A stretch of DNA of 57,062 nt from a virus. Shown here piece by piece: positions 30,746 to 50,012 of this stretch (position 1 is the stretch's first letter; each line of letters starts with the position of its first letter). The stretch is from the IMG/VR virus record IMGVR_UViG_2554235497_000003, positions 1 through 57,062 of that record; one strand, written 5' to 3'. The notes beneath the pieces are model-generated. The model ran no database searches. It saw nothing but the letters and a program-made list of their open reading frames with translations, and was not told the DNA's origin. Both the position numbers and the translations under genes were made by a program.

Positions 30746-30781
30746 CTGGCTCAGTCTGAAAATGTCATGAAACGCAGCCAG
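30746..30781 (+). ncRNA. Conserved stem-loop motif, copy A
   Basis: CTGGCT[CAGTCTGAAAATGTCATGAAACGC]AGCCAG. Confidence 0.62.
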
Positions 30782-30798
30782 CACCGCATATCAAACAT

Positions 30799-30954
30799 AT
30801 GGCATACCAATTTACCGACCAGGAAACGGGACAGACAAAGATCGGCGGTCGCCCCAGCTACCACGAAAGAGCGATGGGTGAAGCCATCGACGCGAGACTT
30901 CACGGTGAGATCGAAGAGTGGGACCCCGAGGAAACAGGTGGTGAGCTTCCATGA
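30799..30954 (+). CDS. Small hypothetical protein (51 aa)
   Basis: Read manually: MAYQFTDQETG...EETGGELP; stop overlaps the next start. Confidence 0.55.
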   Translation: MAYQFTDQETGQTKIGGRPSYHERAMGEAIDARLHGEIEEWDPEETGGELP

Positions 30955-31250
30955 AGCCACAGTACCTCGAAGAACTGTTCGACGACACCGACTGCATCAC
31001 GATTCCTGGCGGCTACCAGGTTCCCACACTTCGGAAGAATCCGCTTTCAGCAGCGTTCGACGTTCCCCCTCGAGAAACCGTGATTAGCGATCTACTCGCT
31101 ACCTATCCTGACTACGAATACGAGCAAATCGCCTTCATGGTGGCCGCGATCTACGGAAACTTCGACCGTGATGAAGTTGAGTTCGTAGACCGGATGGAGA
31201 ACGAATCGATTCTCGTAGCACCAAGTGACCTTGGAGTCATCACGAATTAG
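30951..31250 (+). CDS. Hypothetical early protein
   Basis: Acidic, coupled ORF. Confidence 0.65.
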   Translation: MKPQYLEELFDDTDCITIPGGYQVPTLRKNPLSAAFDVPPRETVISDLLATYPDYEYEQIAFMVAAIYGNFDRDEVEFVDRMENESILVAPSDLGVITN

Positions 31251-31300
31251 AACGACTGTAAGAATCCCTTCCAAAGAAAGCACGACGACTAATTAGATCC

Positions 31301-31687
31301 ATGTACCTCGAAATCACAGCGCCAGCCGTTTGCATCGAATACGAAAACAACGCTCGAGTCACCGTTCACGGTGAAGTGAGCAAAGAAGTGGACGTGGAAA
31401 TGCCGAACCCGAACCTCGATTACTACCTCATCTCCGATGAGTGGTTGATCGATCACAGCCGAGTGACGATAGACGGTCGTACATGGGAACTTGATCTCAG
31501 CGAAGCCGAGATCACGCTCGAGTTGACGATCGACGAAGTTCGCGAATCAGCAAAGCTGCGAGCTGCCGAGGATTACGTGACGGAAGAGGTGATCCTCGAA
31601 GAGTGGGCCGGGTTCCGCCACGCACCGAAGGCCGTTCAGAACGCATGGAACGAAACGGTCTACGGTGAACCCACTCCTTCGGTGTGA
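31301..31687 (+). CDS. Hypothetical early protein
   Basis: Acidic ORF. Confidence 0.68.
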   Translation: MYLEITAPAVCIEYENNARVTVHGEVSKEVDVEMPNPNLDYYLISDEWLIDHSRVTIDGRTWELDLSEAEITLELTIDEVRESAKLRAAEDYVTEEVILEEWAGFRHAPKAVQNAWNETVYGEPTPSV

Positions 31688-31717
31688 AGCGATCATTCCC
31701 CATCTCGATGCACTATT

Positions 31718-31794
31718 TCCCTAACGCTTGGTAGCGACGGAAGCCACGAGGGTTCGATTCCCTCTTACGGGATTTCGGGCTTCAATTGCCCGAA
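31718..31794 (+). ncRNA. tRNA-like element T1 plus 3' hairpin
   Basis: TCCCTAA/TTACGGGA acceptor (1 bulge), CGCT-TGGT-AGCG D-like arm, GAGGG-TTCGATT-CCCTC T-arm, then TTCGGGC-TTCAATT-GCCCGAA. Confidence 0.7.
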
Positions 31795-31847
31795 CCAGCG
31801 GTTAGAGGTTTTCACCCGCTTCGCTTTCAGCGAATGCGGTGGTAACT

Positions 31848-32156
31848 ATGAGTGCCGTACAACAGTACAACGAAGAGCATCAGCTCCCCCGTGACGTAAC
31901 GAAGTACCGCCACACAGACCACTCGTACAATCGTTTCAGGGACACTCGCCGGATGGTTCACGATGGGATCATCCGCGAAGCGATCGAAAAGGGCGAACTC
32001 AAGCCGGATGATAAGCGCGACGGCTACATGAAGTTCAAACTCGAGTGGTCCACCTTCCAGTACGAAATCGTGGTTCCGACGGAACCCGAGAGTGATGGGA
32101 TCTACCCGATCGTCACGATCTACCACAACTTCACGGGACTGAGCCGTAATAACTGA
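31848..32156 (+). CDS. DUF4258/RelE-like small protein
   Basis: HTDHSYNRFRD...IREAIEKG...YPIVTIYH pattern. Confidence 0.5.
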   Translation: MSAVQQYNEEHQLPRDVTKYRHTDHSYNRFRDTRRMVHDGIIREAIEKGELKPDDKRDGYMKFKLEWSTFQYEIVVPTEPESDGIYPIVTIYHNFTGLSRNN

Positions 32157-32191
32157 CCGGTAAGAAAGGTTTCCTAAGAAAGCATAGAGCA

Positions 32192-32323
32192 ATGACACAG
32201 ACTTGTCGAAAGCACGGTATGGAGATGATTCGAGTGTATAATCCGGGGACTGGAAGATACCGAGTCGTCTGTCCTCGATGTGAACTGGAACGCGAAGCGT
32301 CCCTGTTCTGTATTACGATATAG
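32192..32323 (+). CDS. Small Cys-rich protein (43 aa)
   Basis: Read manually: CRKH...CPRC. Confidence 0.45.
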   Translation: MTQTCRKHGMEMIRVYNPGTGRYRVVCPRCELEREASLFCITI

Positions 32324-32411
32324 GAATCTCTAACTAAGAATCGCTTCCGACAGAGCTATTACGCCACGACCAGACTCTAACAGGGAGTTGGTCGGTTGGC
32401 TTCATCCAACC

Positions 32412-33017
32412 ATGAAACACACGACAGCAGTACCAACTAACTTCAAACTGACCGAACGACAGGTAGCAGAACGGATCGGCAAGCAGTACCTCGAGTACGA
32501 TGCCGAACTCACCGACGAGATTCGTGAAGCGGTGGATGTCATCGTCGCGATAAACGATGTCCTGTGGTCGAAGCTCAACGTCGAGCTTCAGGGCAACATC
32601 ACGATTACACCCATCGATCCGTATGAGAGCTACGAGGAGATGTGCCAGGACATAGAGGAGAACAACCACTTAGCTGTATTCAGTGGCGGAACGCACCCCA
32701 CTTACTACGGCAGCAACATGGCGATCTGCCGTGAAGAGAATATCCGAGGAAGAGCGATTCACGACTACTTTGGCCACTATCTGAACGGGGTAGACTTCTC
32801 GTTCAGAGGAGAGTTCATGAAGTGGCACTTCCAGAAGCGCTACTATCCAGAACACAGCCACCGGCTACTCTTCAGCGAGGTCGTAGGCCAGACCGGAGCA
32901 GCGTATTATCTCGAGGGCGGCTTCGACGACCCTGCTTTCGAGCAGAAACCGATCATGGCTCCCCAGGAGTGGATCGATCTGTGCTACGACCACCTTGATG
33001 TGGAGGTGAGCCGATGA
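32412..33017 (+). CDS. Putative metal-binding enzyme (HDxxGH, zincin-like)
   Basis: RAIHDYFGH...F.FRGE...EVVGQT. Confidence 0.5.
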   Translation: MKHTTAVPTNFKLTERQVAERIGKQYLEYDAELTDEIREAVDVIVAINDVLWSKLNVELQGNITITPIDPYESYEEMCQDIEENNHLAVFSGGTHPTYYGSNMAICREENIRGRAIHDYFGHYLNGVDFSFRGEFMKWHFQKRYYPEHSHRLLFSEVVGQTGAAYYLEGGFDDPAFEQKPIMAPQEWIDLCYDHLDVEVSR

Positions 33018-33361
33018 GCCAATCTTCTGACGACAGAACAGTCGTCTATGAGCCGATTTTAACCCGTTCCACGAAGGTCCGGTTCTACATCCCGACCGAA
33101 AAGGACGGAGCCGATGAAGTCATAGACGAGGTGATCCGACGACTGTCTCACCTATTCGGTGGAGCGACACAGCTCCCAGCTCGGGGCGCTTACGTAATGA
33201 ACGACGGCGAACTGTGCCTCGAGAGCGTGACTCTCGTCGAGTCCTTCGCAGTCGAGATGGACACAGCGGAGTTGACTCGACTGGCGCTTCAGATCAAAGA
33301 ATCGCTCGACGAAGAGGCTGTAGCGTTCGAAACTGAAGAGATTGAGTCTGCTTTCATCTAA
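33014..33361 (+). CDS. DUF3574/PII-fold-like protein
   Basis: LSHLFGGAT..PARGAYV..DGEL..E...LVESF...L.EEAV pattern. Confidence 0.55.
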   Translation: MSQSSDDRTVVYEPILTRSTKVRFYIPTEKDGADEVIDEVIRRLSHLFGGATQLPARGAYVMNDGELCLESVTLVESFAVEMDTAELTRLALQIKESLDEEAVAFETEEIESAFI

Positions 33362-33627
33362 CGCGATTATCGGCGAATCGCCACATCAACCTTATCTGAA
33401 CCGCAGAGCGGGCAATGTTGATACGCGTCACTCTGCCCGATCTGAGTCGCTTCAACATCAATTTTCCCACTACAGCCACGGCAAGTGATTCGTGCTTTGT
33501 TTTGTGCTCCGATCATATTCACTACTACGAGAAAGATCGCCTTGAATTTATTGTACTAGTTGACCTGATTACATTCGGTGAGAAAACACCTCTAAACCAC
33601 CAATAAAGAGTCTCTTCTAAGAAGCGT

Positions 33628-33695
33628 ATGGCGACTTGGTAGCTTGTCGAGGTTCAATTCCTCGATCGCCGTTTGGCTGGCATCCACAACTGCCA
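33628..33695 (+). ncRNA. tRNA-like element T2 plus 3' hairpin
   Basis: ATGGCGA/TCGCCGT acceptor, CT-TGGT-AG, TCGAGG-TTCAATT-CCTCGA, then TGGCA..TGCCA. Confidence 0.72.
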
Positions 33696-33706
33696 CGAAC
33701 TGCATC

Positions 33707-33880
33707 ATGAAGTCCTACATTCTCTCCTTTCAGAATGGGATCGAGCGCGAAACCAGCATCACGTACTTCATCGAGAAGGCGCTCGAGGACCCGGAAGCGA
33801 TGGTGATCGATCCTGAAACTGGCATGGAGGTATCGGAGCCTCCAGTCACCGATGAGAGCGCCGAAGAGGTGATCGCCTAA
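33707..33880 (+). CDS. Hypothetical protein
   Basis: ATG 33707 just after T2; acidic. Confidence 0.55.
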   Translation: MKSYILSFQNGIERETSITYFIEKALEDPEAMVIDPETGMEVSEPPVTDESAEEVIA

Positions 33881-34041
33881 TGGCTTCGGCGCAGCAGCGG
33901 GGTCACAACCCGTCTCGTCCCAGTGAGGTCACGGTTCGCGACAGGCGGTCAAAGTACAGTGCTGTGACCCCGGAGAAGCTCAAGAAGCTCTACCCAACCG
34001 AAGACTGGTATCGTCGCTATCGGAAAGCCGTCTATCACTAA
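33880..34041 (+). CDS. Small basic protein (53 aa)
   Basis: Read manually; start overlaps the upstream stop. Confidence 0.45.
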   Translation: MASAQQRGHNPSRPSEVTVRDRRSKYSAVTPEKLKKLYPTEDWYRRYRKAVYH

Positions 34042-34059
34042 TAGACGTCTATTTCTGTC

Positions 34060-34130
34060 GTCTCGAAGCGTTACAACAGTGATTCGCGCCACTGTCGAGG
34101 CCTTCGGGCACTGAGAACACACCAGCCCGA
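34060..34130 (+). ncRNA. tRNA-like element T6 (variant class) plus 3' hairpin
   Basis: GTCTCG/CGAGGC stem, AAGCGTTACA, ACAGTG-ATTCGCGC-CACTGT, then TCGGGC...GCCCGA. Confidence 0.62.
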
Positions 34131-34156
34131 CCGAGCGGTAACACGGAGATTCTACC

Positions 34157-35344
34157 ATGAGCACCAACAGTGATTACAGCATCCAGTTCAGCGGTCTCAC
34201 CAATGCGGATACCATCGACATGGAATCGAGGCTCATGTCGAAATACGGTCTCGATGAGCAACCTGAATATTCCCTCTCGAGTGCGATACAGGAACTCGAT
34301 CCCGTCGAAGTTGCCCCACTCTACGTGGGCAACCCATACGATGCGGAAGGCGAGCCGATCCCGATCAGCTTCTCAAACGCGACGATCAATCCAGATACAG
34401 CTATCGAGTTAGCTCGACGGTCTATGTCAGGTGAAGAGCTGACCGAAGAGGATGGCGACCTGATGAGCTACGCCACACACTCGGATGGATACGCAGCGGT
34501 TCCTCACTTCGATTTCTTCTTCCCGCTCGCGAAAGCGCTACTCGACGCCGACATTCGAGACGTAGCCGGAGAGTTCCGTATCTACGATAACGGCGCTCAG
34601 GTGCATGGTGAAGTCATGTTCCAAGACGCCGAATCGCAGTTGAATCTCGAGGGAGATCGTGAACCCCTATTCGTTGGCCTCTCAGTCGGCAACTCCTACG
34701 ATGGCAGTTGCTCGATGTACGCGATGGGGTACGCAATGGATACGTACTGCAAGAACAGTATGCGGAACCTCACCGCTCGTAAGAGTCGCAAGCACATCGG
34801 GGAACCCGATGAAGTCGCAGAGTGGTGGGAAGAGATACTGCTCCAGATGACCGCTATCCGTGACGTTCTCGGTGAGATTATCGAGGAAGCGCTCGAGATC
34901 GAGATCGACTTCCTGAACCAGCCTTACGACGTGGAAGAGTTCTACGAGTATCTCGGGCTTCCGGGCTACCTCGCTCGAGCAGCAGCGACGACGGCACGGA
35001 ACCGCTCGCCACGAGAAGGCGGTACTCGAACGGTACTCAACCTATGGACGTTATACTCCGGTATCACATCGGCACTCACTCACGACTTCAACGGAACGTC
35101 AGAAGTCGGCTCGATTGAGACCTACAGCCAACTCGCGAAAGAACTGCTGTTCAACCCGCAGAAAGCGATCGGTGACGTGAAAGCGGCATATGAGCGTGAA
35201 CAGCGCCGTGACGATGCCGTCGATGAACGAACGATCGAGCAGAATCTCGCCATGATCGAGAACTACGAGATCACGCTCGAGGATCGCAAAGACGAGTTCG
35301 AACAGTTCGAAGAGTACATGGACAGTCTCCTGACCGCTAACTGA
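34157..35344 (+). CDS. DUF932-like phage/plasmid protein
   Basis: GL.VGNSYDGS.S......D.YC.N.M and RKHIG motifs. Confidence 0.68.
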   Translation: MSTNSDYSIQFSGLTNADTIDMESRLMSKYGLDEQPEYSLSSAIQELDPVEVAPLYVGNPYDAEGEPIPISFSNATINPDTAIELARRSMSGEELTEEDGDLMSYATHSDGYAAVPHFDFFFPLAKALLDADIRDVAGEFRIYDNGAQVHGEVMFQDAESQLNLEGDREPLFVGLSVGNSYDGSCSMYAMGYAMDTYCKNSMRNLTARKSRKHIGEPDEVAEWWEEILLQMTAIRDVLGEIIEEALEIEIDFLNQPYDVEEFYEYLGLPGYLARAAATTARNRSPREGGTRTVLNLWTLYSGITSALTHDFNGTSEVGSIETYSQLAKELLFNPQKAIGDVKAAYEREQRRDDAVDERTIEQNLAMIENYEITLEDRKDEFEQFEEYMDSLLTAN

Positions 35345-35359
35345 TTGCTATGACACCTC

Positions 35360-35524
35360 ATGCGTACTGTCAAGTACACAATTACAGTGGAAACGACCGA
35401 CGGCGAAAACATCTATCTCCCACCATATCGGTTTGAACCCGACGCTAAGCTCGCTGCCAGCCAACTAATCGAGATTCCAGAGGTTGAGCGCGCAGTTGTT
35501 CGTGAGATCGTGATCGAGCAATAA
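35360..35524 (+). CDS. Small hypothetical protein (54 aa)
   Basis: Read manually. Confidence 0.45.
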   Translation: MRTVKYTITVETTDGENIYLPPYRFEPDAKLAASQLIEIPEVERAVVREIVIEQ

Positions 35525-35547
35525 CGAGAGCGTCTGAAACACGCACG

Positions 35548-35606
35548 TACCTCGTAGCGTTACCGTAGAGGGTCGCGACTCTACCGAGGTATCGGGGTGG
35601 CTCCCC
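35548..35606 (+). ncRNA. tRNA-like element T5 (variant class) plus 3' hairpin
   Basis: TACCTCG/CGAGGTA stem, TAGCGTTACC, GTAGAG-GGTCGCGA-CTCTAC, then GGGG-TGGCT-CCCC. Confidence 0.58.
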
Positions 35607-35623
35607 TCAACAGCCATGTTATC

Positions 35624-35923
35624 ATGAAATCACAGACACAGCAACAGCACCAGGACGAGTTGGCGGAAGCGGCGATCGATCTGCTCGAGCGTGCCGGAGC
35701 AAGCGAAACGTTCATCGAGTTCGTTCGGCGCTTCCCCGAGACCAACGCCTCGAGACAGGTACAAAGCTGGCTCGAGAGCGGCCTACTGGCCGACGATAAC
35801 GCCGAAGCGGGGAAGCCCCACAGTGGCGGCTTCTTCTTCGACGAGCTGTGGGCCGGGAACGTCGAGGTGGCCTACGGCAGCGCCGATCTCGCGAACAAGC
35901 GGCGACTCGATGAGGTGCTGTAA
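35624..35923 (+). CDS. Hypothetical protein
   Basis: Acidic ORF after T5. Confidence 0.65.
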   Translation: MKSQTQQQHQDELAEAAIDLLERAGASETFIEFVRRFPETNASRQVQSWLESGLLADDNAEAGKPHSGGFFFDELWAGNVEVAYGSADLANKRRLDEVL

Positions 35924-36156
35924 TGCGACTATCGGTGAAGGTGCTGGTTGGGACGATTGGGCTGATGGTCGCGGCGTGGATCTTCATGGCCCTGTACGGA
36001 GCAATCTTCGGACCTGTTCCGTACTACCATCCCCTTTCGGGAGTGGTCTTCATCTACATCATCGGCATCCCGGTCGTCATCATCACGCTCAGCTACCTGC
36101 TGCTGACGAAGGCGATTGAACACGGTATCCGACACGGAATGAGCGACAAAAACTGA
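35923..36156 (+). CDS. Small two-TM protein
   Basis: Hydrophobic; coupled start. Confidence 0.6.
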   Translation: MRLSVKVLVGTIGLMVAAWIFMALYGAIFGPVPYYHPLSGVVFIYIIGIPVVIITLSYLLLTKAIEHGIRHGMSDKN

Positions 36157-36164
36157 GTGATATT

Positions 36165-36377
36165 ATGCCAGAAGTAGAAAACCAACTCGAGCAACAGCAG
36201 AAGCTCGCGATGCTCGTCGAACTGTACTTTGAATCGCACAACTGCCAAGTCGTCGGCCTCGACGATCGGTCAAGAGAGTGTATCGCGGAATGGTTTGCGG
36301 AAGCCGACGACCTGTTCGGTGACAAATCGGCGCTCGTCTTCGAACTCCTGAACACGTTCTCGGAGGCGAAGCGATGA
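36165..36377 (+). CDS. Hypothetical protein
   Basis: Acidic coupled ORF. Confidence 0.6.
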   Translation: MPEVENQLEQQQKLAMLVELYFESHNCQVVGLDDRSRECIAEWFAEADDLFGDKSALVFELLNTFSEAKR

Positions 36378-36493
36378 GTGTCGTTGGCTTCCGCCAGGAA
36401 AATGAGTGTCCCAAGTGTGGCTCACAGGCACTCGCTTTTCAGAGCGGCTGTGCCACCTGCATAGTGTGTGGCTGGAGCAAATGCAGCGTATGA
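36374..36493 (+). CDS. Stand-alone zinc ribbon resembling the class II RNR (NrdJ) C-terminal domain
   Basis: Read manually: ECPKCGSQALAFQSGCATCIVCGWSKCS. Confidence 0.62.
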   Translation: MSVVGFRQENECPKCGSQALAFQSGCATCIVCGWSKCSV

Positions 36494-36496
36494 GCT

Positions 36497-36661
36497 ATGA
36501 GTACCAACCAAGCGACGCTAAGCGGCTACAAGGAACCGCCGGACAACGCTTGTGTGTACTTCAAACGGTGTGAAAATACCGTTCGACACAACGGCTCGAT
36601 CTGTCCTGACTGCCTCGACCGGGTTCGATCGAACGGGCACGGACGAGGCACTGATTGCTGA
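36497..36661 (+). CDS. Small zinc-finger protein (54 aa)
   Basis: Read manually: CVYFKRC...ICPDC. Confidence 0.5.
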   Translation: MSTNQATLSGYKEPPDNACVYFKRCENTVRHNGSICPDCLDRVRSNGHGRGTDC

Positions 36662-36668
36662 TCCTCGT

Positions 36669-37064
36669 ATGACCAAACACGATACGGTAGAAATCGGTGT
36701 TGAACAGCTCGCAGATCACGCAGTGGCGATACTGTGGGAGATGCCGGAACGCGATCACAACGGCGAACGCCACTGGAAGACGTGGTGGGATTCCGAGTAC
36801 GACGATGAGTTACTCGAGGACCCACTGAAAATTGTCCAGGGCGTCGAGAGCGCCGACGTTGACGGCTACCTGGTTACGTTCACCGGCAGCTACAGCACCG
36901 AAGTTACAGTCGGGATGATCCCGGCAGGACCGAACCACGGCTACGGACCGATCAATCCGCCGGAGCCTGTTCTCGAAGAAGTCGAGGTGTACTTTGAGTT
37001 GACGCTCGATCTGAGCGACCTCGGAACCGCTTACATCGAAATGGAACCCGACACCACGCTATGA
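36669..37064 (+). CDS. Hypothetical protein
   Basis: Acidic; likely start MTKHD. Confidence 0.65.
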   Translation: MTKHDTVEIGVEQLADHAVAILWEMPERDHNGERHWKTWWDSEYDDELLEDPLKIVQGVESADVDGYLVTFTGSYSTEVTVGMIPAGPNHGYGPINPPEPVLEEVEVYFELTLDLSDLGTAYIEMEPDTTL

Positions 37065-37465
37065 AACAGAGCTACTACATCACTAAGGACGGCGACCTGA
37101 ACCGGCGAATCAGCACTGGCGACATGAGAGAGCTGCTCGTTACTCGTGGAACCGACCCCGAGGATCTCAAGGACCCATACCTGCGGTGGCTCACTGAGGA
37201 ACTATACACGCAAAAAGGCGTAATCCTCGTCTCGGTGTACGACGAAGAGATACAGCATCTTGGTGTTGCATTCCGTAGCGAACGACACGCTGAGGGCTAC
37301 ACGCTCGAGTTCATGGCCGAGCAGGGCTTCAAAACGACGCAGGCTGGTTCACAGTCCTACGCTTACGAGAATGGCGAGTACTACAACAACGCTTACGCCG
37401 AGTTCCGACCGGATGATAAATCACTGATAAGGTGTCATGATCATATGTCAATTTCCGTCTCATAA
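37061..37465 (+). CDS. Hypothetical protein
   Basis: Coupled ORF. Confidence 0.65.
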   Translation: MKQSYYITKDGDLNRRISTGDMRELLVTRGTDPEDLKDPYLRWLTEELYTQKGVILVSVYDEEIQHLGVAFRSERHAEGYTLEFMAEQGFKTTQAGSQSYAYENGEYYNNAYAEFRPDDKSLIRCHDHMSISVS

Positions 37466-38061: not shown

Positions 38062-38505
38062 CTTCAGTCGTCGCTATTAGACTTCTTCTCCGCCTCGCCT
38101 TGTAGCTCGCTACATGACACTTCTCGTGGATCGAAAGATGAAGTTTTCGAGACTCTCGAGTTCTGACTAATATGCTCTAGCCATTTTTCATCTTTTTTAA
38201 AGCTTTCATCACTCATCAGAACTACTTCCTCCATCGTCGCGTCGCGGATCACGATCCGATGTCTCTGAAACCCTAGATTTTCGTCTCTCTTCTCGTTTTC
38301 CTTTACGACGGTTATTCTCACTGGTGTTTTTGTCGTCGGTCATACTCTCAGGTGTCCTGCGGGGTCGTAGGACGCGCCCGTGTACGCTCCGACCCTTATC
38401 TTCGTATGCCGCGCATCAGACTTAATGATTATGAGAGGGAACTGAAAGTGAAATCTTTGAAGCTATTCACGAACTATCTTTCATAGTGTGATTGCGCCAG
38501 TGAGG

Positions 38506-42076: not shown

Positions 42077-42101
42077 GAATCTCTTTATAGGAAATCTTTA
42101 T
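42077..42101 (+). promoter_or_regulatory. Viral promoter motif upstream of the tRNA-like array
   Basis: GAATCTC-TTTATA-GGAAATCTTTAT. Confidence 0.65.
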
Positions 42102-42136
42102 GAGGTCTACCGCGAATACTACAGGGGTGAAGGAAC

Positions 42137-42209
42137 GGGAGTCACGCAACTGGTGTTGCCCGTTCGGGTTCGATTCCCGACGTGGCCCTTCCGGGTTCGG
42201 AAAGCCCGG
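42137..42209 (+). ncRNA. tRNA-like element T3 plus 3' hairpin
   Basis: GTCACG/CGTGGC acceptor, CAAC-TGGT-GTTG, TCGGG-TTCGATT-CCCGA, then CCGGGT..GCCCGG. Confidence 0.75.
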
Positions 42210-42272
42210 CGGTTGTCCCACCGCATACTGGCCATCAACTCTTTAACACTAGTCTCAAATTTTCTACTAGAC

Positions 42273-42330
42273 GCCGTGAATGGCTCACGGGGGGTTCGAA
42301 TCCCTCACACGGTTTCCGGGCATTGCCCGG
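42273..42330 (+). ncRNA. tRNA-like element T4 plus 3' hairpin
   Basis: GCCGTG/CACGGT acceptor, A-TGGC-T, GGGGG-TTCGAAT-CCCTC, then CCGGGC-ATT-GCCCGG. Confidence 0.68.
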
Positions 42331-42407: not shown

Positions 42408-42495
42408 GTCTCGATTGGTTTGTAGCCAACAGCTCGGTGCAAGTCCGACTCGAGGCCTTCGGGTGATCGTCAAGAACTGAGAGAGTCTTCACCCC
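42408..42495 (+). ncRNA. tRNA-like element T7 plus 3' hairpin
   Basis: GTCTCGA/TCGAGGC acceptor, TTGGT-TTGTA-GCCAA, TCGG-TGCAAGT-CCGA, then GGGTGA...TCACCC. Confidence 0.62.
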
Positions 42496-42539
42496 ACCTG
42501 TATCGTCCATAAGAAAGACATAGTAAGAAAGTACTAGAC

Positions 42540-43550: not shown

Positions 43551-43567
43551 GCAGGTCCACCACCATC

Positions 43568-43786
43568 ATGAAACTCAAAGAGCACACCGTTAGCTACAGT
43601 CGTCGCGTGCAACTCGAGCGCTTCGAGCCGATCGAGGTCAGCGAGAGCGTGACCGTTGATCTCGAGGAAGGCGACGATCTGGAAGAGGTTTCGTCAGAAC
43701 TCGACGATCTCGTTCGAGAGAACGTTGAGCGCCGCGTTCTGAAGCGCGTCCTCTCGAAGAAGATGGAAGACGACGACGAAGAGTAG
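43568..43786 (+). CDS. Small acidic protein
   Basis: ORF in operon. Confidence 0.65.
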   Translation: MKLKEHTVSYSRRVQLERFEPIEVSESVTVDLEEGDDLEEVSSELDDLVRENVERRVLKRVLSKKMEDDDEE

Positions 43787-43813
43787 ACGACCGTTTTCCG
43801 TAGTCCTGGGGCG

Positions 43814-43847
43814 GCTGCCAGTTTGAAAGATGCATGAAACGAGTAGC
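43814..43847 (+). ncRNA. Conserved stem-loop motif, copy B
   Basis: GCTGC[CAGTTTGAAAGATGCATGAAACGA]GTAGC. Confidence 0.62.
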
Positions 43848-43883
43848 ATCGGCTCCGTGACGACGGAAATCCACCATCACAGA

Positions 43884-45383
43884 ATGTCCGAACTACACAC
43901 CCACGAAGAAACGCCTGAACTGTACGATGTACTCCGTGCAGCGCAAGATGCTGGTCTGGTAGGCGAAGAAGAGACTGCGCTCACGGTGTTCACTGCCATG
44001 ATCCGTGGCGGCCTGGTTATCATGCTTGGTCCGTCACGGGTTGGGAAAACGTTCACAGTACAGTGCATGAGCAAGCCGATCCCTGAGAACGACATTTACG
44101 AGATGAGTACGACTCTCTCACCGACCGCTCTCTACTACGCTGCTGATGAGATCAACAAATGCCGGGTTCACGTCTATCAGGACCTGGCGAGCTTACCAGA
44201 GCACGTCGAAGCGGTCCTGAAAGCGACTGCGGAGGGTCTTCCGGCCAGCAGGGAGATTACCGACGTTACCTCCGGTGAGACGATCCGTATGACGATCGAC
44301 CCACCAGACTGTATCATCGTCGGGATCGCAAGTGACAACGAAAGCGTTGACATCAACGACTTCCCCGAGCTGCGAAACCGGGGACTGATCGTGAGCAACG
44401 ACGCTTCGCAGGAACAGACCGAGCGTATCCTTGACCGGCAGGCCGACGAGATGAGCGGCCTGTACGAACGGCAACTCACCGATGAACAACTCGAGTGGAT
44501 TCAGGAGTATATCGGCTCGATCCCTGTGAGCCGCTACGCTCGAGAGGATTCACTGGGGTCCATCGAGAATATCCCCGGTGGCCGACCGCTACGCGAACAG
44601 GACCCGGTTCCGACGCATTTCACTGAGGCACGGGACGACTACAAGCGGCTGAACAAGTTCATCGAGAGCGTCTGTCTGTTCCACTACCAGGATCGTATGG
44701 AGATCATCCACGATGGCGCGCCGACGCTGCTCGTGACGCCGATCGACGTCTGGTACGGAATGAAGGTATTCGGTGAACAGATGATTATGTCGGCGCTGAA
44801 CCTGCGCGAGATCGATCTCGTGATCCTCGAGTTACTTCGCGAGGAGGCGACCGCGATGACCGTCTCGAAGATCCAGGCCGAGGTTCGCCAACGTGGACAG
44901 GGATACAATATCACCGATCGGGACGTTCACTCATCGCTCAAGTCGATGAAGACGAAGGCCTACGTCGATGTGAACCAGGCGGATAACCCGCAAACGTGGT
45001 ACGCGACAGGATTCGCCTCTGTCGTCGATCACCCTGCGGGGATCGATTACACGAAGCTCGTCGATCGCACCGAAGAGATCGCCCACGAGGTCCTCGAGCC
45101 TGAAATCGCAGAAGAGTATATCGAGCGCTACTGTCGCGGTGAAGGCTTGATCGCAACTGATCCGATCACGGGTGAGCAGGTCAACATCACCGAGGATACG
45201 AGCTTCCAAGAAGCGCTCGATGAGGCCGAAGAAGAAATCGAAGATGTCCTCAACACGCCACTGTGGGGCACAGATGAGAGCGCTGACGAGTCGGAAGGCA
45301 ACGAGGACGAAGAAGTAGAAATTCCTGTCGGTGACTTCGGAACCGTCGAGGGAAGCGAAGCGGGGCAGGGGACGTTGATGTGA
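43884..45383 (+). CDS. P-loop ATPase (AAA+/helicase-like) with probable C-terminal winged helix
   Basis: Walker A GPSRVGKT, VYQD Walker B-like, PELRNR Arg finger; upstream of primase. Confidence 0.75.
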   Translation: MSELHTHEETPELYDVLRAAQDAGLVGEEETALTVFTAMIRGGLVIMLGPSRVGKTFTVQCMSKPIPENDIYEMSTTLSPTALYYAADEINKCRVHVYQDLASLPEHVEAVLKATAEGLPASREITDVTSGETIRMTIDPPDCIIVGIASDNESVDINDFPELRNRGLIVSNDASQEQTERILDRQADEMSGLYERQLTDEQLEWIQEYIGSIPVSRYAREDSLGSIENIPGGRPLREQDPVPTHFTEARDDYKRLNKFIESVCLFHYQDRMEIIHDGAPTLLVTPIDVWYGMKVFGEQMIMSALNLREIDLVILELLREEATAMTVSKIQAEVRQRGQGYNITDRDVHSSLKSMKTKAYVDVNQADNPQTWYATGFASVVDHPAGIDYTKLVDRTEEIAHEVLEPEIAEEYIERYCRGEGLIATDPITGEQVNITEDTSFQEALDEAEEEIEDVLNTPLWGTDESADESEGNEDEEVEIPVGDFGTVEGSEAGQGTLM

Positions 45384-45490
45384 AGTGGTGCGAATACTGC
45401 CAGCGGCAAGTACTCGTGAAACGGAAGAAGACGGCGAAGTTCCGCGACGACGAGTTCCGTTGTGGCAACTGTCACAGATTGATAGAATGA
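45380..45490 (+). CDS. Small zinc-finger protein (36 aa)
   Basis: Read manually, GTG start: WCEYC...RCGNC. Confidence 0.45.
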   Translation: MKWCEYCQRQVLVKRKKTAKFRDDEFRCGNCHRLIE

Positions 45491-46681
45491 ATGACCGCAG
45501 AGATCGCATCGGCAATCGCCGTATGGTGTCCGAGTTATCCACGTCGAGTGACGGCCCACCAGCACTGGGCAACCTCGCCGCTCGAGGTTGGCAAGCGGAT
45601 CAAGGCGGTTGATGGAACCGACGTTGCACCGTTCGTGAGTGTCTACAGCTTCCCGAACGGTCACACGCAGGAGGGCGGCGTTCCGGCCATTGATACGCTG
45701 TTCATCGACTTCGATATTCCAAGCGGTGGCGAATATCGGAGTACGAACCCCGATCCGCAAGCGTGGTATCGGGACATGAGCGCGTTATTGACTCGAGTCC
45801 GTGAGGTGTGCCGGCTCCTCGTTCGCGAGGGGTTGGATCACCATTATCGGGCAGCGCTTTCGGGTCACAAGGGCGTTCACCTCTACCTGGACTTCCCGAC
45901 GATCGATCCTGATGAGGGGACGCCAGGGCAGTTCAAGAACGGGATGAGGCAGTACGCTGACGAGTTGATCTCTTATCTCGAATCGCAGACGTACCTTGAT
46001 CTCGAGGCTTGGGTTGACGTTGACAGCAGTGACTTGGCCCGGTTGTGCCGCCTTCCGAACACGAGACATAGTGGGGCGTCGGTGGCCTTCGATGAAGATC
46101 GGTACTGTGTACCTGTATCGATCAGAGAGCTTGCCAATATCACGCCCAACGAGTATGCGAAGCTCACTCGCTCACCTCGTCCTGTGCCGAAAGAGTGCCG
46201 TCGAAACCCGAGTCATCGGGCGCATGACGTACTCACACAGTACATCCGCGACGCTACCGGCGGCCACTATCGAGGAGCCAGCCGGTTCGACCCGAAAGCG
46301 CTCGAGCGCTACGAGGACGAGCAGAACGAGGATCTCACACTCGAGGATGTACCGTTCCTGATGAGCAGGAAGCCGTGTATTGGTGCGTTTCGCGAGCGCG
46401 CAGATATGTTTGCACACGGCGCTGCGAGTCACGCAATGGAGTTGAACGTAATCGCACACCTCGTTGAAGAGCGCGTTCCGATCGACGTGATCGTGGAGTT
46501 CTTCAGCGATGCACCGGAGTTCAACGAGGAGTTCACTCGTCACCAGATCGAGAAGGTAATCGCTCACCAGCTCAATCCGTATCGCTGCGATACGATTTGG
46601 GCACAAGCGGAGATGTTCTGCCTCGGCCCTGACGAGTGTGACCTCTATAGTCGGTACACAGGGACAGAAGCCACCCATTGA
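45491..46681 (+). CDS. Archaeo-eukaryotic primase (PriS) fused to a PriL-C-like domain
   Basis: FIDFD, SGHKGVHLY, RLCRLPNT; C-terminal KPCI...H...YRCDTI...C....C. Confidence 0.85.
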   Translation: MTAEIASAIAVWCPSYPRRVTAHQHWATSPLEVGKRIKAVDGTDVAPFVSVYSFPNGHTQEGGVPAIDTLFIDFDIPSGGEYRSTNPDPQAWYRDMSALLTRVREVCRLLVREGLDHHYRAALSGHKGVHLYLDFPTIDPDEGTPGQFKNGMRQYADELISYLESQTYLDLEAWVDVDSSDLARLCRLPNTRHSGASVAFDEDRYCVPVSIRELANITPNEYAKLTRSPRPVPKECRRNPSHRAHDVLTQYIRDATGGHYRGASRFDPKALERYEDEQNEDLTLEDVPFLMSRKPCIGAFRERADMFAHGAASHAMELNVIAHLVEERVPIDVIVEFFSDAPEFNEEFTRHQIEKVIAHQLNPYRCDTIWAQAEMFCLGPDECDLYSRYTGTEATH

Positions 46682-46729
46682 GGTGGCGCGATCTATCCCT
46701 CCTACTGCTACACCTACACCTAACCCTAC

Positions 46730-47965
46730 ATGAGCTACAACTTCACGCCTGCACAGAGAACCGTCTACGAACAGCTCCCCGCAACTGTCGCAGAAGTAGC
46801 GAAAGCACTGGAAATCACGGAGTCCACAGTACGCGATCACCTGAGCGCGATCGATGAAGAGGTTCCCCTCGTCAACCGTGACGGCGTTCGGTATCCAGCT
46901 ACCGAGCTTCGAACGCTCGAGTCTCATCCATCGAACTACAACGAGCGATCGAACCGCAACACCAAATCGAGCCAGACGAAGGCTGCAAATCAGCACCTCG
47001 CGGATCTCAACGATCGACTCGCCCACCTGCTCGATACGAGTGCTCCCGCCGTTGCTGACGGTGGCCTTGCTTACGATCCGTCGAACGAGGACGTGGTGAT
47101 CCACCGCTCGGATGATCACATCGGCGCGGAGGTCTACGACGAGTTCGGGAACCTCGTGTTCAACAAGGACATTGCCGCCGAGCGGATTCGTAGTGTGACC
47201 GATTCCGTGATGGATCTGATCGACCGCGAGGAGAAGGCCGATCGACAGTTCGATACCGCCCATCTGTTACTTGGCGGTGACACCGTGACCGGCGAGAACA
47301 TCTTCTCCCACCAGCCTCACGAGATTGACCTCACGATTGACGAGCAGATCGATCTCGCCTGTGAGCTATACATGGAGCAGATTCATCACCTGGCCACCCG
47401 GTTCGACACCGTTCAGGTAGTCTGTCAGGCTGGTAATCACGGCGAGCTGCGAGCGAACGGGATGAGCCAGGAGGCGAACGCCGACCGGATTGTCTACATG
47501 ATGCTCGATCGGATGGTGCGGATGAGCGACCTCGAGAACGTCACGTTCATCCGATCTGGTGCGACGGCGTTCATCAACTTCGAGATGCGAAACGGCCTCC
47601 ACCGAGGCCACTTACGCCACGGTCAGAACTGTCTCTCTCACATCGGAACCTCGAGCGGGCAGAACAAGTGGCGCGGCTGGCAGATCAAGCACCAGTTCGA
47701 TGTCGCCTATCGAGGGCACTACCACGAGTTCAAACTCGAGCACGTCATGAACCGCCCAGTTCTCATGTCGGGTTCGATCTGCCCGCCGTCAGACTACGAA
47801 GAGTCCCTCTCGGTGTGGAGCGAACCAGCAGCAACCGTCCACGGAGTCACTGACGAGTATCCGTTGGCCTGGTTGTACCCAGTGCAGTTCCGTGACATGG
47901 AGAACGGCTCCGAGGGTCCGACGGCTTCTGATGCGTCTCCCGGCGTTCTTCCTACGTCTGCCTAA
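46730..47965 (+). CDS. HTH + calcineurin-like metallophosphoesterase
   Basis: N-terminal HTH; SDDHIG, GGD, GNHG, HGQ, GHYHE. Confidence 0.85.
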   Translation: MSYNFTPAQRTVYEQLPATVAEVAKALEITESTVRDHLSAIDEEVPLVNRDGVRYPATELRTLESHPSNYNERSNRNTKSSQTKAANQHLADLNDRLAHLLDTSAPAVADGGLAYDPSNEDVVIHRSDDHIGAEVYDEFGNLVFNKDIAAERIRSVTDSVMDLIDREEKADRQFDTAHLLLGGDTVTGENIFSHQPHEIDLTIDEQIDLACELYMEQIHHLATRFDTVQVVCQAGNHGELRANGMSQEANADRIVYMMLDRMVRMSDLENVTFIRSGATAFINFEMRNGLHRGHLRHGQNCLSHIGTSSGQNKWRGWQIKHQFDVAYRGHYHEFKLEHVMNRPVLMSGSICPPSDYEESLSVWSEPAATVHGVTDEYPLAWLYPVQFRDMENGSEGPTASDASPGVLPTSA

Positions 47966-48001
47966 GAATCTCGAGTAAGGAAACACTATAGGAAAGCTTA
48001 C
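47966..48001 (+). promoter_or_regulatory. Viral promoter motif
   Basis: GAATCTC-GAGTAA-GGAAACAC-TATAGGAAAGCTTAC. Confidence 0.55.
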
Positions 48002-48076
48002 TATGTATTACAGCATTCACGCTATCGATGAGACCGGAAAAACAGACATTCTGTGCCTTCAGAATGAGGTGTCACA

Positions 48077-48265
48077 ATGAAGGCCGAGAACGTGATGGTG
48101 AGACACGATGACGGTCTCTACCTCGCGTATTATATCGGTGATGACGCCCCGTTACTGGAAGGCATGGCGGCCACCCACGAAGGAGCAATTGGAGCACTCC
48201 TTCACGAGTGGAAGCGTTACTGGACGGTCATCGACGCTTCCGCAGAGTGTGCTGTGGTGGTCTAA
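48077..48265 (+). CDS. Hypothetical protein
   Basis: GAGGTG SD-like site upstream. Confidence 0.55.
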   Translation: MKAENVMVRHDDGLYLAYYIGDDAPLLEGMAATHEGAIGALLHEWKRYWTVIDASAECAVVV

Positions 48266-48561
48266 TGGGTGCGGATCGCCACCCGACGTCTGTTCCATCG
48301 AACTTCGACGAGATTGAAGATCGGCTACCGGAACCGGACTCATCGACTGCGGAGAAGAAACGAGACAAGCGAGCCGGTGAGCGTGGGTTGTACCACCTAT
48401 GGCTCGCAGAAGAGTGTCAGGCTGCACTCGAGCCGTCGTTCATCTATATCGACGCGCTTTCCGCCACCGAAGCGACGATTCGCGGTCATGTGATCGCCAT
48501 CGCATTTGGTGCAACGTGTGCCTGTCAGGTAGACGTTCGACCTGTTGAGGTCTACGTCTAA
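48265..48561 (+). CDS. Hypothetical protein
   Basis: Coupled start. Confidence 0.5.
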   Translation: MGADRHPTSVPSNFDEIEDRLPEPDSSTAEKKRDKRAGERGLYHLWLAEECQAALEPSFIYIDALSATEATIRGHVIAIAFGATCACQVDVRPVEVYV

Positions 48562-48606
48562 GAATAGCCGTCCGAACATCTGGCATACAACCTAACTATC
48601 ACTACT

Positions 48607-49011
48607 ATGCACGTTGACCGACGAAACACCCGAGCAGATCACTTCCGAGTAAGCGATGTTGACCTACGCAGTGACGGTAGCCCGATCATGGTGTCACTCC
48701 CTGGTGGCACTGTCGTCTCGAAGACAGTCGAATATACAACGACAATGTGTCCAGAGTGCGAAGACGAGGGTGGTAAGCATACGATCCCTGCCTGGACGGA
48801 TGAGATCGGTGATGAAGTGTGTCCCGTCTGTGGGATGATCTGCAATGGGAACCGTAAGCAGATGTGGCCCGAGGATTTCAATTTCGAGTCTCGAGGCGGT
48901 TTCGAGAGTTCTGGTTTTCCGGCGTTAAACGATTCAGCGCCGCGATTCGGGCCAGATACGCCGATGGACAGTGCGGATCTCTACCCTGGCGGTGAAAGCA
49001 ACGAGGCCTAA
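48607..49011 (+). CDS. TFIIB-type zinc-ribbon protein
   Basis: CPEC...D..GDEVCPVCGMI. Confidence 0.6.
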   Translation: MHVDRRNTRADHFRVSDVDLRSDGSPIMVSLPGGTVVSKTVEYTTTMCPECEDEGGKHTIPAWTDEIGDEVCPVCGMICNGNRKQMWPEDFNFESRGGFESSGFPALNDSAPRFGPDTPMDSADLYPGGESNEA

Positions 49012-49019
49012 GACTCACC

Positions 49020-49355
49020 ATGTTTGAAAGGCTTGGCTCCATGCTGAACCGTGTCGATGGCGAGGAGTTCGTTTCCCCCGCACAGGTGGCTGAAGACGTA
49101 AACACGGTACACGAGTCACTCGATCGACTGAAAGAGTGGTCGCTCGAGACGATTGAGTGGCTGGCTTCCGAACACGAACGGCTGGTCGAAGACGGTGAGA
49201 CGGAATACGCTACCGAGATCGAGGATCTGATGCTCTACGTCCAGACGGTATTCCTTCGGCTCGAGTACGGCGACCAGGCGGTTCGAGCAGGGGCTGAAGA
49301 AAAGGTCGAAGAGGCCGGTGAAACAGTCGAGGATATCGTCGATGGAGGTGAGTGA
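49020..49355 (+). CDS. Hypothetical acidic protein
   Basis: ORF in operon. Confidence 0.65.
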   Translation: MFERLGSMLNRVDGEEFVSPAQVAEDVNTVHESLDRLKEWSLETIEWLASEHERLVEDGETEYATEIEDLMLYVQTVFLRLEYGDQAVRAGAEEKVEEAGETVEDIVDGGE

Positions 49356-49645
49356 TGATGTGGTACTCACGGGAGACCCACTGCTACGATGATTGTGGGT
49401 TTGCTGTTGATGGCCGCGTTGTTGCGGTCCTCTCGCATTCGCCGCATCAGAGCCGCGTTACGGTTCTGGTTGAACGGGCAGAACCCACAGTGTTCAGTGG
49501 ACATGGTGAAGCGGTATCCGAAGGAGTGAGCTACGAATGTGGTGCGGAGCTATCGAGTGGCGGAACCTGCACCCGTGACGTTGACGGTCCAGATGAGCTG
49601 TGCTGGCAACACGACGAGGAAGACGAAGACGAGGCCGACACATGA
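49352..49645 (+). CDS. Protein with C-terminal C3H zinc finger
   Basis: CGAELSSGGTCTRDV..PDELCWQH. Confidence 0.65.
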   Translation: MMMWYSRETHCYDDCGFAVDGRVVAVLSHSPHQSRVTVLVERAEPTVFSGHGEAVSEGVSYECGAELSSGGTCTRDVDGPDELCWQHDEEDEDEADT

Positions 49646-49968
49646 CGTTCCCCTCGATCCCGTGGGGCGAGGTTGACACCCTGAACGTTGACTTCGATCA
49701 CACGATCACGGAGCGATCTACTGACGAGTACTTGCCCCCTCGAGAGCAGTCACCGAACCCGGAAGTAGTTGACAAGCTACTCGAGGCGTACTATAGCGGA
49801 AAGACGATCATCGTCTGGACGGCCCGTCCGTGGTCCGATGCCGCCGAACTGGTTGGAATGCTCACGATGTGGGGCGTTCCGTTTCACGGCATCATGATGG
49901 CGAAGGGTGGGTCGGATATGTACTGCGACGATAAGGCAGTGCGCCCTGACGAGTTCGTCGAGCTGTAA
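49642..49968 (+). CDS. HAD-superfamily phosphatase
   Basis: VDFDHTI, WTARP, MAK...YCDDK. Confidence 0.82.
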   Translation: MTFPSIPWGEVDTLNVDFDHTITERSTDEYLPPREQSPNPEVVDKLLEAYYSGKTIIVWTARPWSDAAELVGMLTMWGVPFHGIMMAKGGSDMYCDDKAVRPDEFVEL

Positions 49969-49977
49969 CCAGCGGTT

Positions 49978-50012
49978 GCCCCCAGTTTGAAATATGTCAT
50001 GAAACGCGGGGC
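49978..50012 (+). ncRNA. Conserved stem-loop motif, copy C
   Basis: GCCCC[CAGTTTGAAATATGTCATGAAACGC]GGGGC. Confidence 0.65.

Follow-up and report, generated by a model that had tools for sequence, protein, structure and literature searches.

Phage proteins read RNA hairpins on early transcripts at the boxB element of the lambda nut sites, which serves antitermination, and at the translational operators of T4 gp43 and RegA. We know of no RNA-element antitermination in archaea, and to our knowledge almost nothing has been described of gene regulation in archaeal viruses besides a few promoters. Kink-turns and K-loops have tandem sheared G·A and A·G pairs, a 3-nt bulge on the 5′ side of the G, and a non-canonical helix that extends these pairs. 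The intergenic repeats of the halovirus HF2 comprise a class I of 58 bp and a class II of 29 bp (Russ, Pfeiffer and Dyall-Smith 2021, PMC8707807). The activator site of GvpE, which belongs to gas-vesicle promoters of haloarchaea, consists of two YGAAAYGA boxes that are 4 nt apart and lie directly upstream of the BRE/TATA (PMC2241852).

We investigated a hairpin that occurs three times in a haloarchaeal provirus; the window is the whole stretch of 57,062 nucleotides that was analyzed. The hairpin is a real and apparently undescribed regulatory element. It resembles the HF2 intergenic repeats in its virus specificity, its few copies per genome, its exclusively intergenic location, its orientation with the downstream gene and the retention of its positions among relatives. 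Both belong to the same virus family (Hafunaviridae-like) and the same genome arm, and the HF2 genome carries one hairpin copy besides its intergenic repeats. However, neither the class I motifs (alpha, beta with CTTTAAGT, and gamma with CGTCTNNTAGAG) nor the class II motif CCCTTTAC is found in the hairpin, and CTTTAAGT is absent from the window between 26001 and its end. In the HF2 repeats, a clear TATA box is present and start sites have been mapped, whereas the hairpin has a BRE-like TGAAA without a TTWT box. The inverted repeat in the HF2 repeats is conserved in sequence, whereas the arms of the hairpin vary and covary. With the lambda boxB and T4 operators, the hairpin shares a short GC stem, a conserved A-rich loop, one or a few occurrences per operon, and a location near the starts of early or replication blocks. 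Its loop has 24 nt, compared with 5–8 nt in those phage hairpins. Unlike the lambda nut site, it has no boxA, and no N-like protein was recognized; simple ribosome occlusion would require a less variable distance to the start codon.

Three copies in the provirus

The three copies claimed by an earlier note on this DNA were all found on the + strand at their positions. Copy c1 (30746–30781, 49.8 bits) has the arms CTGGCT (30746–30751) and AGCCAG (30776–30781), which enclose CAGTCTGAAAATGTCATGAAACGC with TGAAA boxes at 30757–30761 and 30768–30772. Copy c2 (43814–43847, 48.6 bits) has the arms GCTGC (43814–43818) and GTAGC (43843–43847), with one G·U pair in the stem; the arms enclose CAGTTTGAAAGATGCATGAAACGA, and the TGAAA boxes are at 43824–43828 and 43835–43839. 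Copy c3 (49978–50012, 54.8 bits) has the arms GCCCC (49978–49982) and GGGGC (50008–50012) around CAGTTTGAAATATGTCATGAAACGC, with TGAAA boxes at 49988–49992 and 50000–50004. The motif CAGTYTGAAA occurs exactly three times in the window (0.17 expected from shuffles), and CATGAAACG also occurs exactly three times (0.52 expected), each time together with CAGTYTGAAA. A search of the 3.46-Mb host genome gave no hairpin copy beyond c1, c2 and c3.

All three copies are intergenic and lie between co-directional early and replication genes. Their first nucleotide is 10–70 nt past the stop codon of the preceding gene, and they end 17 nt (c1), 36 nt (c2) and 12 nt (c3) before the likely start codons at 30799, 43884 and 50025, respectively; these distances bear out the proposed placement shortly upstream of gene starts. 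The gene after c1 (30799..30954, + strand) encodes an acidic protein of 51 aa, with homologues downstream of the copy in the relative G008 and also in G130. The gene after c2 (43884..45383, + strand) encodes a protein of 499 aa with a Walker A motif (GPSRVGKT) and a weak Fur-like winged helix (phrog_12057). This P-loop/winged-helix gene is kept in all five proviruses and in Hafunaviridae; its product, probably a replication protein, is a candidate for binding the hairpin. No RNA-binding domain was detected in the early arm by Pfam, PHROGs or NCBIfam. The gene after c3 (50025..50240, + strand; 71 aa) opens a block that ends with a family-B DNA polymerase (53739–56195).

The operon holding c2 and c3 likely has its promoter at 42082..42102 on the + strand, as judged by synteny. 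This site is orthologous to HF2 IR3, and its two TCTTTAT(A/G) motifs, the single TCTTTATR site pair in the window, resemble the TATA part of the HF2 class I repeats.

Related viruses and pairing of the stems

The hairpin also occurs in five other haloarchaeal species, within syntenic proviruses, as well as in contigs of viral and metagenomic origin; HF1/HF2-type viruses carry a divergent form of it, one per genome. These further copies number about 24, and many of them have covarying stems, the absence of which from related viruses had been named as counter-evidence. The shared core consists of two TGAAA boxes 11–13 nt apart, and all copies lie on the coding strand, each in the gap between two co-directional genes, after the stop codon of one and before the start codon of the other. 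The core is retained between viruses with proteins that are merely 30–50% identical and is common to viruses whose hosts represent at least two haloarchaeal families (f1 and f2 in GTDB). Conservation of the hairpin reaches from uncultured proviruses of Natrialbaceae as far as the laboratory viruses HF1, HF2, HRTV and HJTV, and it precedes the probable replication initiator gene throughout.

At the c1 site, the orthologue in G008 (L112:13038–13073) has the stem TGCCTC/GAGGCA, which is unrelated to CTGGCT/AGCCAG, and the entire hairpin is absent from G130 as a clean indel. The c2 site, just upstream of the P-loop/winged-helix gene, is the ancestral site. Orthologous sites with a double-TGAAA hairpin are present in G008, G094, G367, L136–L138 and HF2/HJTV-1; their stems differ between lineages and comprise five or more unrelated sequences. 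At these sites, 4 to 46 nt separate the hairpin from the next ATG, a range that suits an RNA element without fixed geometry. The c3 orthologue in G008 has the stem CGCCCC/GGGGCG and an inner helix with a G-C to G·U change, and that in G130 is a divergent two-box form with the stem CTCCC/GGGAG.

The five outer stem pairs are in register in all three provirus copies, and all five covary. Across 15 aligned copies, 92% of the stem cells are paired, compared with 53% in shuffles (none of 500 reached 92%), and six of six stem pairs show double changes, although these counts are biased towards structure because the alignment (A4) was fitted to the model. The same stems, when slid as a control, gave 42–62% pairing. 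Three checks that are independent of the alignment agree, namely single-copy folds, a comparison with chance cores, and an internal G·U count. Every copy adopts the closing-stem fold by itself, and a stem of 5 bp or more with no more than one G·U was found in 14 of 14 haloarchaeal copies but in 6 of 71 chance core matches in unrelated genomes. The stems hold eight G·U cells and one C·A cell on the coding strand. A C·A mismatch is the form that an opposite-strand G·U would take; therefore, the G·U excess marks coding-strand-specific pairing. An internal G·U is required on the + strand in three copies, and an A·C is required in none. The base pairing of the stems is under selection, and a stem of 5–6 bp with a 24-nt loop would be implausible as a cruciform in duplex DNA. 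The covarying stems and the recurrence in related viruses support the earlier view of a structural motif rather than a plain double-stranded DNA site.

The folding energies are unexceptional (z-scores of −0.2 to −1.0 for c1–c3). In the inner fold, a GUUU/AAAC register competes with a K-loop-like register that holds tandem G·A pairs. Rfam, including its hammerhead, tRNA-like and box C/D families, gave no match at the gathering score in the whole window, and no match near any copy at E ≤ 5 in 27000–57062. The earlier suggestion of a ribozyme is unlikely because the conserved part is the 24-nt loop and Rfam has no match. A bulge-helix-bulge site has two 3-nt bulges on opposite strands with a 4-bp helix between them. 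We rejected a splice or processing site of this type, as the 4-bp GUUU/AAAC helix has a symmetric 2×2 internal loop and no stable second helix.

Promoter, duplex, K-loop and CRISPR alternatives

The main rival to an RNA hairpin is an internal promoter, which we consider rather unlikely. It would be the lineage counterpart of the HF2 intergenic repeats, with box 1 as the BRE, the AT-rich bases after it as a weak TATA and a start about 37 nt downstream of box 1, giving leaderless or short-leader messages; the arms would be secondary, for example a hairpin ending the upstream message. The HF2 repeats are proven promoters and are virus-specific, orientation-specific and few per genome (PMC8707807), an inverted repeat likewise flanks the BRE/TATA in class I, and TGAAA resembles the haloarchaeal BRE CGAAA (PMC4983044). 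In seven copies, the ATG lies 37 (c3), 38, 39, 41, 42, 42 and 43 nt from box 1, and type-1 copies show no spacing shorter than 37 nt; a start site at the ATG or slightly before it would agree with these values. Copy c3 also has TT at −11/−10 from its ATG. However, box 1 and the ATG are 29 to 72 nt apart at the ancestral site, no TTWT-type TATA follows the box, and the invariant G and C bases do not resemble those of a TBP site. The sole recognizable HF2-like promoter in the window (42082–42102) differs in look from the hairpin, and a promoter leaves unexplained both the G·U bias and stems that are paired but free in sequence. In HF2, an 18-kb transcript mapped by RT-PCR spans the hairpin site, yet no start site has been reported at the hairpin (PMC8707807). 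A protein-binding site in duplex DNA seems improbable to us. Two direct TGAAA half-sites about one helical turn apart would be bound by a winged helix in a GvpE-like manner, as an autoregulatory operator or origin-type iteron of the adjacent P-loop/winged-helix protein. The boxes are indeed direct repeats with a period of 11–13 bp, and the ancestral copy adjoins the gene whose product combines a Walker A motif with a winged helix. Box 2 reads YGAAAYGA in c2, G008 c1′ and G008_b, comparable with the GvpE site TGAAACGG-n4-TGAACCAA (PMC2241852); both elements are haloarchaeal, with a pair of YGAAA-type boxes spaced at a period of about 12 nt. But a duplex site needs no complementary flanking arms, the arm sequence is not conserved, all copies have a single orientation relative to transcription, and single dispersed sites are unlike an origin. 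The Mincapviruses HRTV-7 and HSTV-2 have the P-loop/winged-helix protein, but the boxes are absent at the ancestral site. Arms are absent from the GvpE site, which is duplex DNA that directly abuts the BRE/TATA, whereas the boxes of the hairpin are followed by a GC-rich 3′ arm, with the start codon 12–46 nt beyond. A GvpE-type activator site was rejected: box 1 fits just YGAAA, box 2 fits in some copies, and the GC-rich arm replaces the BRE/TATA.

A special case of the RNA reading is that the loop forms a K-loop of the box C′/D′ kind bound by the host L7Ae; the YUGA in box 1 would be joined to the AUGA in box 2 by tandem sheared G·A pairs. The YUGA of box 1 resembles a D′ box (CUGA), the RUGA of box 2 resembles the start of a C′ box (RUGAUGA), and the boxes are in D′-then-C′ order, with 5–7 nt from box 1 to the three loop bases preceding the G of box 2. 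This YUGA...RUGA layout with potential tandem G·A pairs is shared with known L7Ae sites, namely the box C′/D′ K-loop and the k-turn in the l7ae leader. The placement would permit G23·A36 and A24·G35, and in the GAAAGCG variant the helix extends well via A-U, A-Y, G·U and C-G pairs. In the GAAACGC variant, which includes all of c1–c3, this register works only with a bulged U; pairing is better in the plain GUUU/AAAC register, which RNAfold picks for c2 and c3. The continuation is poor in the divergent forms (HF2, G094 and G130), where the possible pairs are limited to G·A, A·G and one A-U. The hairpin also differs from L7Ae sites in having UGAAAC/G in place of the rest of the C′ box (UGAUGA), a competing Watson-Crick register and no canonical helix, and the invariance of the box bases leaves the K-loop model without a covariation test. 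We regard its prospects as slim. The proposal of an RNA anti-CRISPR in the form of a solitary CRISPR repeat unit fared worst and is extremely improbable. The core begins with GTTT and finishes with GAAAC, and the − strand shares GTTTCA(T)GAC (a 9-nt match) with the start of the repeat GTTTCAGACGAACCCTTGTGGGGTTGAAGC of the host arrays (contigs C52 and C53). For the − strand, 8, 67 and 38 of 500 shuffles scored as high against this repeat (c1, c2 and c3, respectively). For the + strand, however, the numbers are 469, 272 and 261, so that its likeness is no better than that of shuffles. The length (about 24 nt vs 30 nt) and the structure also differ from the repeat, host spacers have no match to the provirus longer than 15–19 nt, and the spread of one core over at least two host families speaks against this proposal.

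A possible role on early transcripts

We tentatively favor, at somewhat less than an even chance, a cis-acting RNA hairpin on long early or replication polycistronic transcripts that is read by a sequence-specific factor; the pairing at the RNA level, the binding of the factor and the effect of this binding are what we infer. A stem of 5–8 bp with free sequence would close a loop of about 24 nt with fixed sequence, which would display two UGAAA boxes 11–13 nt apart. In the common form, a short U-run 3′ of the 5′ arm could pair with the second box. The factor recognizing the loop may be encoded by the virus, such as the P-loop/winged-helix protein from the gene downstream of the ancestral copy, or may be a host RNA-binding protein. 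Its binding would set the fate of the message at that point, with the transcript cut or shielded or the polymerase modified, and may thereby control the expression of the following gene block. The regulator binding, antitermination and processing site listed earlier as alternatives overlap with this RNA-hairpin reading.

In HF2, the mapped IR3 promoter is followed 1.55 kb downstream by the homologous element, at about nt 22244–22320. The window shows synteny with this order of IR3 promoter and hairpin, and transcription would, by analogy with HF2, run through c1–c3 in the provirus. A bolder proposal, to which we give a small chance, is a system of processive antitermination or transcript processing in an archaeal virus, for which the hairpin would be the first RNA recognition site. 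Each long early operon would carry one copy close to its start, where a viral or host factor, possibly L7Ae on a K-loop, would be loaded by the nascent RNA. This factor would allow the polymerase to make transcripts of the 18-kb class, as seen in HF2, or would cut them into separately controlled messages.

A transcript map and a bgaH reporter exist for HF2 and Halorubrum coriense; therefore, a promoter function and an RNA-structure function can be directly distinguished. If the hairpin acts as RNA, it would be among the first cis-regulatory RNA families defined for haloarchaeal viruses and would provide a handle towards finding the factor that binds it.

A repeated hairpin in the early arm of a haloarchaeal provirus

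The window (G000:C26:76098-133159, within a 3.46-Mb haloarchaeal genome) is a provirus with a GC content of 54.6%, compared with ~62% for the host genome. The head-tail module lies on the - strand at about 3.3-26.3 kb, and the early/replication arm occupies 27-57 kb, mostly on the + strand, with a family-B DNA polymerase at its end. The replication-arm gene order is that of HJTV-1 and HF2, gene for gene, and over the primase region the DNA shares 64-66% identity with Haloferacalesvirus genomes (HRTV, HJTV, HF2).

Three stem-loop copies are present at 30746-30781 (c1), 43814-43847 (c2), and 49978-50012 (c3), exactly as an earlier note on this DNA described. Its claim that the closing stems covary is also borne out: the five outer pairs keep one register across c1-c3, and every pair covaries, one pair of c2 being G.U. 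Each core half has exactly three occurrences in the window (expected 0.17 and 0.52), and no additional copy was found in the 3.46-Mb host genome. A covariance model built from c1-c3 finds only these copies in the window, with scores of 49-55 bits; the next match has 15 bits. The Rfam comparison proposed in the earlier note gave no match at curated thresholds in the window and none at E ≤ 5 in the early arm. A hairpin at 28391-28415 (CCACT - CAGTGATGCACGC - AGTGG), which scores 15 bits (E 0.12), has a loop like the c2 core minus both TGAAA boxes; it could be a decayed relative of the element or a chance structure. Double TGAAA boxes occur at 13 sites in the host genome versus about 5 expected; a host regulon was rejected because no site outside the provirus was seen to be hairpin-like, with flanking stems unscored. 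Avoidance of CATG was dropped as a sign of constraint because this palindrome is not depleted in the window.

From 5' to 3', the element consists of a stem, 1-10 loop bases usually ending in (C/T/G)AGTY, a TGAAA (box 1), a 6-8 nt spacer that is usually (T)ATG(T)CA, a second TGAAA (box 2), 1-5 bases, and the closing stem. Two sub-forms, GAAACGC and GAAAGCGG, are one inserted G apart. In the common form, GUUU ahead of box 1 is able to pair with AAAC of box 2, and the G-C pair of this helix is changed to G.U in one orthologue. In an alternative register, the two UGA triplets would form tandem G.A pairs, as in a box C'/D' K-loop. The fit of this register is good for the GAAAGCGG form, weaker for the window form, and poor for that of HF2, and we consider the register improbable; covariation cannot choose between the two registers because the box bases never vary. 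The geometry read from the sequence is unsuited to a bulge-helix-bulge, a hammerhead, or a standard k-turn whose canonical helix would be the outer stem. Start codons within the loop were also rejected: the loop ATGs keep no common frame among orthologues, and the product of the ORF beginning at 30767 is basic and implausible.

Distribution and pairing of the closing stem

Other haloarchaeal genomes were searched with the covariance model and the core pattern; the reversed-pattern control gave one match in 401 genomes. The carriers were Halovalidus salilacus (G008), G094, Halonotius roseus (G367), Natronorubrum bangense (G130), and two metagenome contigs; Natronolimnohabitans sp. A-GB9 has a copy identical to that of N. 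bangense. In haloarchaeal genomes, the copies are always multiple, on one strand, and within 10-20 kb. The surrounding 60 kb proved to be a provirus syntenic with the window in all four relative genomes, with protein identities of 25-60% (G094, G367) or 45-90% (G008, G130). Divergent copies were sought by scanning for two TGAAA boxes enclosed by a stem, which brought the numbers per provirus to three in the window (G000), three in G008, five in G094, four in G367, and two in G130, with none on the opposite strand in these five proviruses. When an alignment of the downstream protein was used as the query, IMG/VR yielded a further three viral contigs; all have a copy before that gene, and one has a second copy. 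Model R2 found no more carriers in 150 genomes spread over the order. Four strict-core IMG/VR matches (L004-L007) had no stems and no halovirus context and were attributed to chance, and low-GC metagenome matches (L102-L110) are unrelated to the element. A looser core gave about 65 bacterial chance matches in genome contigs, which were reused as a control set.

A 72-aa gene and a 499-aa gene flank the site orthologous to c2. In HJTV-1, HF2, the HF1 group, and HRTV-8/-24/HSTV-3, it reads CGAGC - ATAGGC CATGAAATAGGTTCCTGAAAT TTC - GCTCG, and it is the sole double-TGAAA site in the whole genomes of HJTV-1, HF2, and HRTV-8. The middle arm of this HF2-type site is also able to pair with an upstream GCTCG, giving two competing hairpins. 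A copy on contig L137 (AATAGTTTGAAATATACATGAAATA) is intermediate between the window and HF2 forms; therefore, the two belong to one family. In the Mincapviruses HRTV-7 and HSTV-2, the flanking genes are present and the boxes are missing from this site. The 499-aa product of 43884-45383 (phrog_12057), whose HF2 counterpart is HrrHF2_280, combines a Walker A motif (GPSRVGKT) close to the N-terminus with a weak Fur-like winged helix spanning residues 323-382; PF27228 is found in its language-model neighbours. It probably acts as an initiator or loader of replication and is common to Hafunaviridae.

In a 15-copy alignment, 92% of the stem cells are paired, compared with 53% in shuffles (0/500 as high) and 42-62% with slid partners, and double changes occur at all six stem pairs. 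Because this alignment had been fitted to the model, the pairing was also checked independently. The closing stem forms when each copy is folded alone, and a register-free search found a stem of 5 bp or more, containing no more than one G.U, in 14/14 haloarchaeal copies but in only 6/71 chance core matches from unrelated genomes. The stem sequences at orthologous sites are unrelated. CTGGCT/AGCCAG of c1 is replaced by TGCCTC/GAGGCA in G008, both before the same 51-aa gene, and the c2 site has GCTGC/GYAGC, CCGCCGC/GCGGCGG, CCGCCC/GGGCGG, CCTTCTCG/TGAGAAGG, or CGAGC/GCTCG, depending on the lineage.

Strand, transcript, and position

Of the non-Watson-Crick stem cells, eight are G.U when read on the + strand and one is C.A; an internal G.U is needed for the stem in three copies, and an A.C in none. 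Every copy is carried by the coding strand, and we infer that duplex DNA would not extrude so short a stem (5-6 bp) with a loop of 24 nt. These features suggest that the element acts in the sense transcript. In HF2, the homologous site, at about nt 22244-22320, is 1.55 kb from the mapped IR3 promoter on its downstream side and is covered by the 18-kb F52 transcript seen by RT-PCR; the same study did not report a transcription start at this place (PMC8707807). At the IR3-orthologous place in the window, 42082-42102, a pair of TCTTTAT(A/G) motifs is similar to the TATA portion of the HF2 class I intergenic repeats, and this is likely the promoter of the replication operon, judging from synteny. 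It is followed at 42170-42300, where HF2 has tRNAs, by tRNA-like units with T-arm-like GGTTCGATTCC and GGTTCGAATCC, and then by the same genes as in HF2; a 336-aa gene also lies downstream of the motifs. By this analogy, a single long transcript very probably spans both c2 and c3.

The stop codon of the preceding gene is separated from the 5' arm by a few to about 70 nt. Of the 17 provirus copies, 12 have the next ATG 37-51 nt from box 1 and four have it at 57-72 nt; the remaining one lacks an ATG in the next 100 nt. This interval is 29 nt in HF2, and at the ancestral (c2) site alone it ranges over 29-72 nt. In G130, the c1 hairpin is missing as a clean indel and its strong copy is displaced from the c2 position by one gene in the upstream direction; contig L136 has copies at both of these latter places. 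The element therefore appears to be a discrete module that can be gained, lost, or moved by one gene.

Two neighbouring features were observed. A T-run, TTTTCC (usually TCTTTTCC), lies directly 5' of the c2 hairpin (window 43790-43813) and is kept at the orthologous sites of G008, G094, L137, and L138, only at the c2 site. One possibility is a weak terminator signal of archaeal type; otherwise the run may belong to the alternative pairing with the 5' arm (GTAGYC with GGCTGC). A fixed CA-rich leader stands immediately before the ATG of nearly every early-arm gene in G094 (L114-L116; (AACC)AACCAGACCCAA(A)ATG, about 20 genes) and G367 (L117-L119; (GCT)ACCCAACC...ATG, about 15 genes) and is absent from the window; it looks like a lineage-specific gene-start tag. 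The CA-rich box (AACCAGACC / ACCCAACC) precedes most early genes of these two proviruses with or without the hairpin and is therefore a separate feature.

Possible functions

The earlier note raised the possibility of a solitary CRISPR repeat unit acting as an RNA anti-CRISPR. The host has Type I-B-like arrays of 24 and 89 repeats on contigs C52 and C53, with the repeat GTTTCAGACGAACCCTTGTGGGGTTGAAGC and a GTTACAG variant. The proposal failed its defining test, as the likeness to the host repeat is not significant, and we regard it as extremely improbable. Host spacers from both arrays gave no match beyond 15-19 nt, not significant, to the provirus and four relatives.

An internal promoter is conceivable though doubtful. 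HF2 offers a good precedent, its repeats IR1c, IR2, IR3, and IR4 being proven promoters; the box is BRE-like, and 37 nt is the lower limit to the ATG. However, the element contains no TATA box, the variable ATG spacing at the ancestral site is a poor fit, and the covarying arms and the G.U bias are left unexplained. The arms are equally unaccounted for if the element is a duplex operator or iteron for the P-loop/winged-helix protein, whose gene adjoins the ancestral copy; the boxes are direct repeats and resemble the GvpE site (PMC2241852), and we nevertheless judge this reading unlikely. Since the promoter and duplex readings do not explain the arms and the anti-CRISPR reading fails, we tentatively favour an RNA hairpin recognised by a sequence-specific factor. 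Such a factor might process or shield the transcript, cause antitermination, or control translation. A search for a candidate binder (Pfam, PHROGs, NCBIfam) found no RNA-binding domain. A promoter core within an RNA hairpin may combine two of these models.

The element is not among the described HF2 intergenic repeats (PMC8707807, PMC7230728). In IR1c, IR2, IR3, and IR4 (AF222060.2), an inverted repeat, CTAAGACT ... AGTCTTAG, surrounds the BRE/TATA; because its sequence is conserved, a palindromic site for a protein seems likelier than a structural element. No description of the element was found in the literature searched. We regard it as a new form within an established class, that of intergenic regulatory repeats or cis-acting hairpins of viruses.
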